53,552 nt of DNA from NCBI GenBank assembly GCA_016182385.1, contig JACPGV010000002.1, forward strand, positions 1 to 53,552, written 5' to 3'. Below the pieces are notes generated by a model, which saw only the letters and a list, made by a program, of their open reading frames with translations, did no database searches and was not told the origin of the DNA. This DNA is from Candidatus Moraniibacteriota bacterium (GTDB lineage: Bacteria > Patescibacteriota > Minisyncoccia > Moranbacterales > UBA1568). Position 1 is the stretch's first letter. Each line of letters opens with the position of its first letter. The translations under genes were made by a program, and so were the position numbers. This document shows positions 13,968-16,556 of this stretch, piece by piece.

Positions 13968-14672
13968 ATGACGACTCAGTCGATCACGCAAGACCAGGAA
14001 AAGCAACTGAAGCGTTTTCTCGAAGACGCTTCCGTATCAGCGACTCGCTCGGCCCTCGCCCAAGTGCCTCTCGACAAGGAAGGCGCACAGCAGGTCATCG
14101 AGCGGGGGGACGCACTCAAGGCCGAAATCGAACGGGCCACCATCAACGCCCTGAAGAGACTCGGCTCGCGCTACCCGGTGCTTACGGAAACGCGGCTTCT
14201 CAAGCCCGTGGCCCAAGCAACCGTTCCGGCACGAACGAAGCCCTTCAATGTGGCGGAGTTCTACCAGACCGGCCCCGGCCTCTACGTCTACGACACCTTC
14301 GCAGACCGTCTCGACCTCCACGCCAGACAGGCGGTGGACTCGGCTCCCGAGCGTCCCTACGTGGCCTCGCTTCTCAAAGCGAACGCCTACGACAAGGACA
14401 TTCGCAAGGAACTGCCGGAAACCCACCTGTCGACGCTCGAAGACATCGCAGGCCTGATCGAAGCACAGCCCAACGGCAAGTCGGGCTTCCTGCTGAACAA
14501 CGGCTACGCGAACATCTTCTACGTCGAGGGCAAAAACGGTGAAGTCTTCGCCGTGGATGTCTACTGGGGCTCGGACGACCGCGAGTGGGACGTCGGCGGC
14601 TGGGAGCTCGACGAGGATGGCCACTGGGACGCTGACTTCCAGGTTCTCTGCCCAGGCAACGCAGCGCTCTGA
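13968..14672 (+). CDS. DGR target (variable) protein with C-terminal VR
   Basis: 234 aa; the last ~43 codons align to the TR; visibly GC-richer than typical genes in the window. Confidence 0.93.
   Translation: MTTQSITQDQEKQLKRFLEDASVSATRSALAQVPLDKEGAQQVIERGDALKAEIERATINALKRLGSRYPVLTETRLLKPVAQATVPARTKPFNVAEFYQTGPGLYVYDTFADRLDLHARQAVDSAPERPYVASLLKANAYDKDIRKELPETHLSTLEDIAGLIEAQPNGKSGFLLNNGYANIFYVEGKNGEVFAVDVYWGSDDREWDVGGWELDEDGHWDADFQVLCPGNAAL
14542..14662 (+). repeat. DGR variable repeat (VR) including IMH
   Basis: Aligns without gaps to 14992-15112; 16 mismatches opposite TR adenines and one non-A mismatch (14658 A vs 15108 C) at the 3' end. Confidence 0.95.
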
Positions 14673-14760: not shown

Positions 14761-14902
14761 GATACAATGAAAGAGGTGTGTTGGAAATTTCTTTCGGCTA
14801 CGGCTGAAAGGTCAGGATACTGGAAGTGAAATGTGCCAGAGTAGTTGCGGAAACTTTCTTCAACTAGAGTGCCACTTTGTTTTCAAAAAATATAATGCGT
14901 TG

Positions 14903-15150
14903 GTGTCTTGAACTGGCGGACTTCTATGTCCCGCATACGATACAATCCTAAGAGTATTCAAAGGGTGGTGGAATGGATGGTTCAAGGCACAAAGTCTTCG
15001 CCGTGAATGTCAACTGGAACTCGGACAACCGCAAGTGGAACGTCAACGACTGGAAGCTCGACGAGAATGGCAACTGGAACGCTGACAACCAGGTTCTCTG
15101 CCCAGGCCACGCTTCAAATTTCTCTCGTCTTTAAGGCGAGAGTTTTGTTT
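14903..15150 (+). ncRNA. Predicted DGR template RNA (structured 5' leader, TR, 3' hairpin)
   Basis: TATAAT at 14891; stem 14903-14915/14978-14990 closes at the TR start; 3' hairpin 15122-15142 with T tract. Confidence 0.55.
14992..15112 (+). repeat. DGR template repeat (TR) with IMH*
   Basis: AAC/AAT-rich copy of the VR, reading KVFAVNVNWNSDNRKWNVNDWKLDENGNWNADNQVLCPG in the VR frame. Confidence 0.95.
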
Positions 15151-15515
15151 TTAGGCCTTTCTTCCAGCCCCCAAGCATCCGACCGATTTCCTGAAGTTCC
15201 GTAGAGAGTCCGAGGTATTTTTTGTTATCGATTAGCTTATTTTCCCAGCCGATTTGTAGGAAGAATTTGAGAAGATCGGTTTTACCGATGATAGCGGTCA
15301 GATACTGGATTTTAGTTTCCGGCTTTGCGTATTGGGCTCGGAAGAGGAGCTCAAGCGTATCGAGGAAGAGACGATCGATTTTTTCGCCAAATGTGTAACG
15401 ATGAATTTTTGGAATATGAGCGATAAAACTTTGCCACAGCTGATAGGCGGCCTTCAGTTGAACAATGACGCTGATTTGTCCCGATCCTGCGGGGGGGGGT
15501 ATTTCCAGGAATCAT
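15131..15515 (-). pseudogene. avd: DGR accessory variability determinant (Avd), frameshifted at the G9 tract 15491-15499
   Basis: Minus-strand frame reads GQISVIVQLKAAYQLW...PKIHRYTFGEKI...DLLKFFLQIGWE...LQEIGRMLGGWKKGLKTKLSP*; no in-frame ATG/GTG/TTG near the 5' end; ATG 15515 is in frame if one G is removed (127 aa). Confidence 0.85.
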
Positions 15516-16556
15516 TATAGGAAAAAGAAGAAAAAATTAGTCGTTTCTTATGATGATATCATATCCCTCGAGAATCTCCTTGCCGCGTGGAAGGAATTCC
15601 TGAAAGGAAAAAGGAACAAAAAGGACGTCCAGGAATTCGAAGCACATCTTATGGACAATCTCTTCGTGCTCTACGAAGATCTGAAAAACAAGACCTACGA
15701 GCACGGCGGCTATCAGGCTTTTAAAATCAATGATCCGAAGCCGCGCGATATTCACAAGGCGTCAGTGAGAGATCGTCTCGTACATCGCGCCATTTACCGG
15801 ATTCTCTATCCGTTCTTTGACACGCTCTTCATCGCTGATTCGTATTCCTGCCGAGAGGGGAAGGGCACGCACAAGGCACTCGATCGTTTCAGGGTCTTTT
15901 CCCGAAAGGTTTCTTGCAACCATACCAAGACCACTTGGGTGCTCAAGTGCGACATCCGGAAATTTTTTGCATCGATCGATCAGGATATCCTCTTGCGTAT
16001 TCTTCGTGAGTGGATCCAAGACGAAGATATTCTGTGGCTGCTGGGGAAGGTAGTACGAAGTTTTTCTTCTTCGACAGCGCGAAATGTCGGATTGCCGCTT
16101 GGCAATCTTACCTCACAGCTTCTCGTGAACATCTCTATGAATGAATTTGATCAATTCGTGAAACATCGATTGCGGGCAAGATATTACATTCGATACGCCG
16201 ATGACTTTGTCATCTTGTCTCGGGACAAAGTATGGTTAGAGTGTATCTTGGCAGAGATAGGGAGGTTCTTGGATGAAAGGCTACATCTCAAATTGCATCC
16301 GGACAAAGTGTTTATCCAAACAGTCGTTTCGGGTGTCGATTTTCTTGGCTGGATGCACTTTTCTGATCATTGCGTGCTGCGGACGGTGACAAAAAAGAGG
16401 ATGTTCCGGAAACTCTGCGAGAAGAACATTTTCTCGTATCTCGGATTGCTTTCGCATGGGAACGGGTATCGGTTGCGAAGAAAACTCACTTCCTTATTTT
16501 TCAGCGATGGAAAGAAACTGTCTGAGGGTAGGGAGGATATCTTTTTCGACGAGTAG
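15465..16556 (+). CDS. DGR reverse transcriptase
   Basis: ISLENL..AW, PKPRDI...VRDR.VH, CDIRKFF.SI, GLPLGNLTSQ, YIRYADDF, GVDFLG; no maturase or endonuclease domain. Confidence 0.95.
   Translation: MTLICPDPAGGGISRNHYRKKKKKLVVSYDDIISLENLLAAWKEFLKGKRNKKDVQEFEAHLMDNLFVLYEDLKNKTYEHGGYQAFKINDPKPRDIHKASVRDRLVHRAIYRILYPFFDTLFIADSYSCREGKGTHKALDRFRVFSRKVSCNHTKTTWVLKCDIRKFFASIDQDILLRILREWIQDEDILWLLGKVVRSFSSSTARNVGLPLGNLTSQLLVNISMNEFDQFVKHRLRARYYIRYADDFVILSRDKVWLECILAEIGRFLDERLHLKLHPDKVFIQTVVSGVDFLGWMHFSDHCVLRTVTKKRMFRKLCEKNIFSYLGLLSHGNGYRLRRKLTSLFFSDGKKLSEGREDIFFDE

Follow-up and report, generated by a model that had tools for sequence, protein, structure and literature searches.

One of the described systems closest to the element considered here is the diversity-generating retroelement (DGR) of the Bordetella phage BPP-1, a cassette formed by the target gene mtd with its variable repeat (VR), avd, the template repeat (TR) and the reverse transcriptase (RT) gene brt. 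In the Bordetella phage DGR, Avd is needed together with the RT for mutagenic cDNA synthesis. To our knowledge, the regulation of DGRs is largely unknown, and unchecked mutagenic retrohoming would keep destroying working variants. The DGRs of Patescibacteria form a clade of their own, clade 2, according to the available sections of a DGR survey (PMC8144416).

Homopolymers are a characteristic feature of two other kinds of system. In simple-sequence-repeat (SSR) contingency loci, a pure G/C run of 8-11 is located in the 5' coding region, mixed frames are found over intact gene bodies, and the run changes in length between otherwise identical sequences. The known loci of this kind control surface antigens or restriction-modification enzymes, and Campylobacter, one of the genera that carry them, is not known to have mismatch repair. 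Poly-G/C contingency runs located in coding starts or in promoter spacers have been described for Neisseria, Campylobacter and Haemophilus (PMC4965091 and PMC3786947, in the sections available). The second kind is the recoding that takes place at homopolymers of IS elements, dnaX and the herpesvirus thymidine kinase (TK), where two frames meet at the run, in some cases beside a hairpin, and where both the run length and the direction of the shift are fixed. It is also known that tRNA-Pro slips +1 at CCC-C. On the G run of the herpesvirus TK, compensatory low-level frameshifting is described in the available part of PMC5009743.

The locus described here is located in the window, i.e., the whole stretch of 53,552 nucleotides from a Candidatus Moraniibacteriota bacterium that was analysed. 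Open reading frames, repeats and profile searches revealed a complete DGR formed by a target gene with its VR, a TR, avd and an RT gene. The target gene (13968..14672, plus strand) encodes a protein of 234 aa that matched no family in Pfam and NCBIfam searches, and its last codons, at the 3' end, contain the VR (14542-14662, plus strand). The TR (14992-15112, plus strand), defined like the VR by comparison of the two repeats, follows 450 nt downstream; both repeats differ at 17 positions, 16 of which correspond to an adenine of the TR, and the TR has 34 adenines versus 19 in the VR. The body of avd (15131..15490, minus strand) is intact and encodes 119 aa plus the stop codon (15134-15490 without it) of an Avd with the four-helix-bundle fold; it matches PF22296 with an E value of 7.7e-13 and 49.3 bits, which passes the cut-off of 40, and NF033474 with an E value of 1.5e-17 and 63.8 bits, under the cut-off of 80. 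The RT ORF (15465..16556, plus strand) has 363 aa as it stands, with a conserved body that starts near 15537; it matches RVT_1 with an E value of 5.3e-26 and is 55-69% identical to the RTs found beside avd genes in 78 loci. The DGR-type RT, the adenine-specific TR/VR differences and the presence of Avd confirm that this element is a diversity-generating retroelement.

The RT, the Avd four-helix bundle and the adenine-specific TR/VR differences are shared with the BPP-1 DGR. In contrast with the latter, avd is inverted in the window, its 5' end overlaps the 5' end of the RT gene, and it contains a homopolymer. A further difference concerns the TR, which appears to be equipped with a promoter-like site and a terminator of its own. 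The promoter-like site, GTGCCA-16-TATAAT (14869..14896, plus strand), was detected upstream of the TR by a consensus scan and is a weak lead, given that one such site was found and 1.4 are expected; the terminator-like hairpin (15122..15152, plus strand), with a 9-bp stem and a T-run, is located just 3' of the TR. From these two elements it follows that the TR RNA may be a separate transcript, i.e., the TR may be a short transcription unit of its own whose template RNA is not co-transcribed with avd or the RT gene.

The homopolymer (15491..15499) is a G9 on the plus strand, 5' of the RT body, and a C9 on the minus strand, where it encodes proline residues in the N-terminal tail of Avd. Its distance from the VR is approximately 830-950 nt. 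It is the only G/C run of at least 8 in the window, and by composition alone it is unremarkable, since at least two G8 matches were obtained in 28 of 100 shuffles. The start of avd, i.e., the ATG at 15515-15513 and the first codons up to the run (15500..15515, minus strand), is displaced by one base from the frame of the Avd body. This ATG opens a frame of 54 aa (15351..15515) in which the ATG is followed by five codons, the C9 and a continuation that soon reaches a stop, and the frame of the Avd body has no ATG, GTG or TTG after its upstream stops. When one CCCC is read as a single step, so that one C is skipped, the ATG at 15515 is joined to the Avd body in a product of 127 aa; an exact look-up in a protein collection found neither this joined-frame Avd nor the 119-aa body. 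The C9 between the ATG and the body is uninterrupted, and a change of a single unit alters the avd frame.

The sequence statements of the initial annotation were all reproduced in the window. It had placed the avd ATG out of frame at G9, which the ORFs bear out, and the product of 127 aa that it predicted for G8 corresponds to the protein obtained by skipping one C. Likewise, the ATG at 15465 that it proposed for the RT is in frame across the run at G9 (ORF 15465-16556), the ATGs at 15401 and 15416 are in the frame that G8 would join to the RT, and the CTG at 15508, suggested as an alternative start, falls in the frame of the Avd body.

The genome from which the window was obtained (775,714 bases in 11 contigs, 98.55% complete) contains only four G/C runs of at least 8 across its 775,714 bases, and three of these (G9, G10 and G11) occupy the same place in three avd genes. 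These genes are 40-49% identical to one another and each is divergent from an RT gene. Besides the G9 cassette of the window (C2:15491), in which avd is out of frame, there is a G11 cassette (C2:207487-207497), also with avd out of frame, and a G10 cassette (C6:8631-8640), the only one of the three in which avd is in frame with its ATG; the latter two are complete and have the same architecture as that of the window. The mismatches between TR and VR correspond to TR adenines in 16 of 17, 14 of 14 and 23 of 23 positions in the three cassettes. Since the differences in the two off-state cassettes are adenine-specific, both have been active.

The initial annotation had suggested that homologous DGRs be examined for a conserved poly-G of variable length, and such a run is indeed present in most of them. 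Species-representative genomes and metagenomes contributed 80 loci each to this comparison; all are Patescibacteria-like, and together with the three cassettes of the genome they make 163. In five of these the 5' end of avd is at a contig edge, leaving 158 usable loci. A C run of 6-15 was found directly 5' of the avd body in 148 of these 158 loci, and it has a length of at least 8 in 138. The most frequent lengths are 9 (48 loci) and 10 (52 loci), followed by 8 and 11 (17 each), 7 (eight) and 6, 12 and 15 (two each). Among the 81 loci of the first set and of the genome itself with an avd match, an RT match was present in 78, and in all 78 the RT is divergent from avd and begins at a distance of 24-120 nt from where the avd match starts. 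A second copy of the locus from the species of the window was not found, the best relative reaching 76% and the exact look-up being empty. As an outgroup, 30 viral DGR loci with an Avd about 30% identical were used; these have avd and RT on the same strand in the classical order, their avd ORFs start with ATG in 29 cases and with TTG in one, and none of them contains a G/C run longer than 6.

The loci that lack the run are informative on the start of avd. In six of ten such loci, which represent five lineages, the Avd body continues the frame of the upstream ATG, from which it follows that the ATG upstream of the run is the start of Avd and that the run is coding sequence. None of these six loci encodes Pro-Pro-Pro or a proline-rich peptide at that place, which argues that the homopolymer is kept at the nucleotide level and not for its prolines. 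Another locus of the ten has an interrupted run with avd out of frame, and one more has a truncated avd. In the locus L033 (2967-2983) the C run is replaced by (AG)8A, which leaves avd one repeat unit out of frame. The run belongs to an N-terminal tail outside the Avd family domain, since the family models start 10-18 residues downstream of it. Among the database homologues of Avd, 12 of 27 were called with an N-terminus that goes through TPP or PPP, and the other 15 begin downstream of the run. Gene callers thus truncate or miss avd genes that have the run, and surveys in which the completeness or activity of a DGR is scored from an intact avd will misjudge the Patescibacteria clade.

After removal of duplicates, 120 flank groups were obtained, and 118 states with an upstream ATG open to the run could be assigned; for the on and off calls, an ATG was accepted if its frame was open up to the run and its distance upstream was no more than 75 nt, GTG and TTG were left uncounted, and the five contig-edge loci and one locus without an ATG were dropped. 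Avd is in frame in 34 of these states; the run is one C too long in 58 and one C too short in 26. The three classes, given as in frame, one too many and one too few, account for 7, 0 and 6 states at a run length of 8; 11, 24 and 2 at 9; 8, 24 and 9 at 10; and 4, 6 and 7 at 11. At least two frame classes are present in each of the 11 clades with two or more members (clusters at 75% identity), and in all four large clades the most frequent class is the one with an extra C; the excess of this class (58/118) gives a chi-square of 14.1 and a p of approximately 9e-4, uncorrected for kinship. The in-frame share of 29% is the expectation for random frames, and a model in which the frame of the DNA is irrelevant would fit it too.

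The avd bodies of the 83 off-state loci have a median length of 118 aa and a minimum of 114, and those of the 33 on-state loci have the same median of 118; avd tblastn scores are the same in both groups and their RTs are equally intact. Given that length and scores equal those of the on-state bodies, the out-of-frame avd genes are not decaying.

The length of the run differs in seven of the 38 locus pairs that share an identical 300-nt avd body, and many of the 31 concordant pairs are probably one assembly deposited twice. The differing pairs belong to four sets with identical flanks and run lengths of 9/9/10, 9/9/8, 9/10 and 9/8/8, which cover all three frame states; homopolymer noise may be responsible for some of these differences between assemblies. 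At a divergence of at least 10%, 75% of the pairs differ in run length. Four of the five contig-edge loci end within the run or a few bases from it, and several further runs of relatives are located within 150 nt of contig ends; breaks at these positions fit either within-sample heterogeneity or poor reads. Searches for MutS (TIGR01070) and MutL (TIGR00585) gave no match in the genome, which at 98.55% completeness is not proof of their absence; the elongation factor EF-P and TrmD are present.

These results lead us to favour, at somewhat better than even, the reading in which a hypermutable repeat makes the production of Avd, and hence mutagenic retrohoming, phase-variable. According to this model, the G9/C9 would be a hypermutable simple-sequence repeat that spans approximately codons 6 to 9 of avd. 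Its length would change one base at a time through slipped-strand mispairing in replication, in a lineage in which no MutS or MutL was found, and each change would move the Avd body in or out of frame with its ATG. Each DGR cassette would be on or off in different cells, reversibly and independently of the others, and in the assembled genome the G9 and G11 cassettes would be off and the G10 cassette on. The interpretation as a contingency locus is based on the pure and conserved repeat, the mixed frames over intact genes, the changes that affect only its length, the (AG)8 replacement and the lack of a detectable mismatch repair system. Since Avd is needed in the Bordetella phage DGR, the run can be read as a stochastic switch on mutagenic retrohoming. 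We infer changes of length within populations, a need for Avd in this DGR and a gating of VR diversification by switching. The phase-variable switch proposed in the initial annotation for both genes finds good support for avd in the comparison of loci, given the conserved run of variable length, the mixed frames, the intact bodies, the different lengths between identical flanks and the in-frame ATG where the run is missing, and none as a general rule for the RT.

The likeness to the SSR contingency loci of Neisseria, Campylobacter and Haemophilus comprises the uninterrupted G/C stretch of 8-11 in the 5' part of the coding region, the mixed frames with intact bodies, the changes in length, in this case between homologous loci, and the mismatch repair genes that were looked for and not found. 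The main difference is that the gene controlled would be that of the Avd of a hypermutation machine instead of a surface antigen or a restriction-modification enzyme; in addition, the host is an uncultured member of the Patescibacteria, the run is also located in the 5' region of a divergent and overlapping RT gene, and the system is known from sequence alone.

A plain on/off switch does not predict the excess of the class with one C too many, nor the presence of a hairpin next to the run. Slippage on the C run, by the RNA polymerase or by tRNA-Pro, probably makes the off states leaky, above all the one with one C too many. A broader model, to which we give slightly less than an even chance, goes further: the poly-G/C tract in avd would act as a stochastic gate that flips each cassette between diversifying and frozen, the state with one C too many would be a dimmed setting read by +1 slippage of tRNA-Pro, and the run with its hairpin would serve as the leader or ribosome-binding site of the RT.

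The hairpin is perfect, has a stem of 5-10 bp and, read on the avd strand, begins 0-3 nt beyond the 3' end of the run; it was present in 52 of 120 loci versus 2 of 120 control windows; a hairpin adjoining the run appeared in 2.4% of shuffles. It was counted anchored on the run, since its position differs by one codon between clades (as in loci L021-L083 and others). It is GC-rich, and at least nine different stem sequences, which differ between clades, were observed; in the window it is weak. RNAalifold gave no consensus structure for 40 run-flanking sequences, and a search of Rfam returned only two chance-level matches and no known RNA family. The RT-sense strand gives the more stable fold in 43 of 62 loci (mean difference 0.58 kcal/mol), a count dominated by one clade. 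The hairpin hints at a role at the RNA level, one that the switch model does not need.

The strongest alternative is programmed recoding, in which slippage of the RNA polymerase or a frameshift of tRNA-Pro on CCC-C would always yield some in-frame Avd, the length of the run in the DNA would matter little, and the run with its hairpin would keep Avd low relative to the RT. This explanation accounts for the near-random frame states, for the fact that the commonest state requires exactly a +1 shift, the one that tRNA-Pro makes at CCC-C, for the hairpin that follows the run at 0-3 nt in 52 of 120 loci, as frameshift stimulators do, and for the diversified VRs of the off-state cassettes of the genome. 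However, the required shift is not conserved and all three classes are present in every larger clade; the single shift direction expected of a programmed frameshift was not found, given that 58 states need +1, 26 need -1 and 34 are in frame. The likeness to the homopolymers of IS elements, dnaX and the herpesvirus TK is limited to the run at the junction of two frames and the hairpin that is sometimes adjacent to it, whereas both run length and shift direction vary here. The hairpin is equally common in on-state loci: its presence is distributed as 27/10/14 and its absence as 31/16/20 among the states with one C too many, one too few and in frame, so that it is no commoner in off-state loci, and as a candidate frameshift stimulator it shows no association with the frame class. 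EF-P and TrmD, which suppress such shifts, are both present, and the idea that the loss of either promotes frameshifting was discarded. The replacement of the run by (AG)8 fits slippage on DNA better, and the slippage study in E. coli (PMC6260861), in the part available, covers only A/T runs. Programmed recoding is considered rather unlikely, and a similarly low probability is given to the view that RNA-level or ribosomal slippage adds leaky expression or is the main route.

The next alternative is that the run serves the RT or a nucleic-acid structure, as a G-rich ribosome-binding site, an element of the 5'-UTR, or, jointly with the hairpin, a site for protein or RNA binding; the consequence for the avd frame would be a tolerated side effect. 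This possibility is linked to the position of the RT start. According to the initial annotation, the RT must be read through the run, because no canonical start is present between the run and its conserved N-terminus. Such a start is indeed lacking in the window, but obligatory read-through fails as a general rule, since an ATG is present between the run and the conserved N-terminal Tyr in 95 of 113 unique loci, often 9-10 nt after the run; only GTG or TTG is found there in five, and an in-frame stop separates the run from the RT start in 40. The 13 loci without a canonical RT start in this region include the three cassettes of the genome and their nearest relatives, and in all three cassettes the RT frame reaches an upstream ATG or TTG across the run. 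In 12 loci without a canonical start, the RT was joined to an upstream start in 8 of 12 at the assembled length versus 14 of 24 at the two neighbouring lengths; the assembled length is thus not enriched for read-through of the run. For the RT of the window, the start is possibly the ATG at 15465 across the run or a near-cognate codon just after it. The RT genes of this clade (window 15537-15560; L006-L014 and L020) have no ATG, GTG or TTG near the conserved N-terminus, and a TTA is often present about four codons before the conserved Tyr, near the position of the ATG, GTG or TTG of some related loci.

The downstream ATG in 95 of 113 loci, at a spacing with modes of 9-10 nt that resembles a Shine-Dalgarno arrangement, and the enrichment of the hairpin next to the run with at least nine stem sequences, are what an element of the RT would predict. 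Nevertheless, about 45 of the 95 loci have a spacing of at least 15 nt, with a maximum of 74, a ribosome-binding site needs no unbroken run of 9-11, (AG)8 takes the place of the run at one locus, and no Rfam family matches; in addition, this explanation does not account for how 84 of 118 states make Avd. We regard it as improbable.

The weakest alternative, an artefact in which G9 is a homopolymer assembly error for G8 or decay in which avd is a frameshifted pseudogene, draws on a single base that decides the frame and on contigs that end at or near the run (four of five edge loci and several other runs), a sign of assembler trouble, and an error is possible for the run of the window taken alone; nevertheless it cannot explain the pattern across loci, since 84 of 118 states, from many independent studies, are out of frame and errors of both signs would be needed, the intact avd bodies indicate purifying selection and the VRs are diversified, all of which makes it very improbable.

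Phase variation of avd, if confirmed, would offer a simple route, both heritable and reversible, by which a few cells diversify while a good variant is preserved in the others, and it would be a first case of a hypermutation machine under phase-variable control. In full-text searches that did not extend to the main survey of CPR DGRs by Paul et al. (2017) or to supplements, no paper was found connecting Avd or DGRs to a homopolymer, to slippage or to phase variation; likewise, the available text of two DGR surveys (PMC5758913 and PMC8144416) makes no mention of a homopolymer in avd.

Other poly-G runs are present in this genome and its relatives. The fourth run of the genome is a G8 (C4:8434-8441) located between the hexamers TTGACT and TAGAAT. 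In relatives (L198, L203, L204, L205, L207 and L211), runs of G9-G12 are found between -35-like and -10-like hexamers, e.g., TTGACA, 7 nt, G9, TATACT, some of them upstream of genes for small secreted or unknown proteins; phase variation through the promoter spacer is possible at these sites, judging from their arrangement. These further runs in promoter-like spacers suggest that contingency loci may be a general strategy of these small-genome, probably host-attached bacteria. In one relative, a G9 run splits an ORF similar to GTP cyclohydrolase II (L206:1501-1509), and in another a single nucleotide separates a C9 run from the downstream ATG of a glycosyl hydrolase of family 1 (L212:1501-1509).
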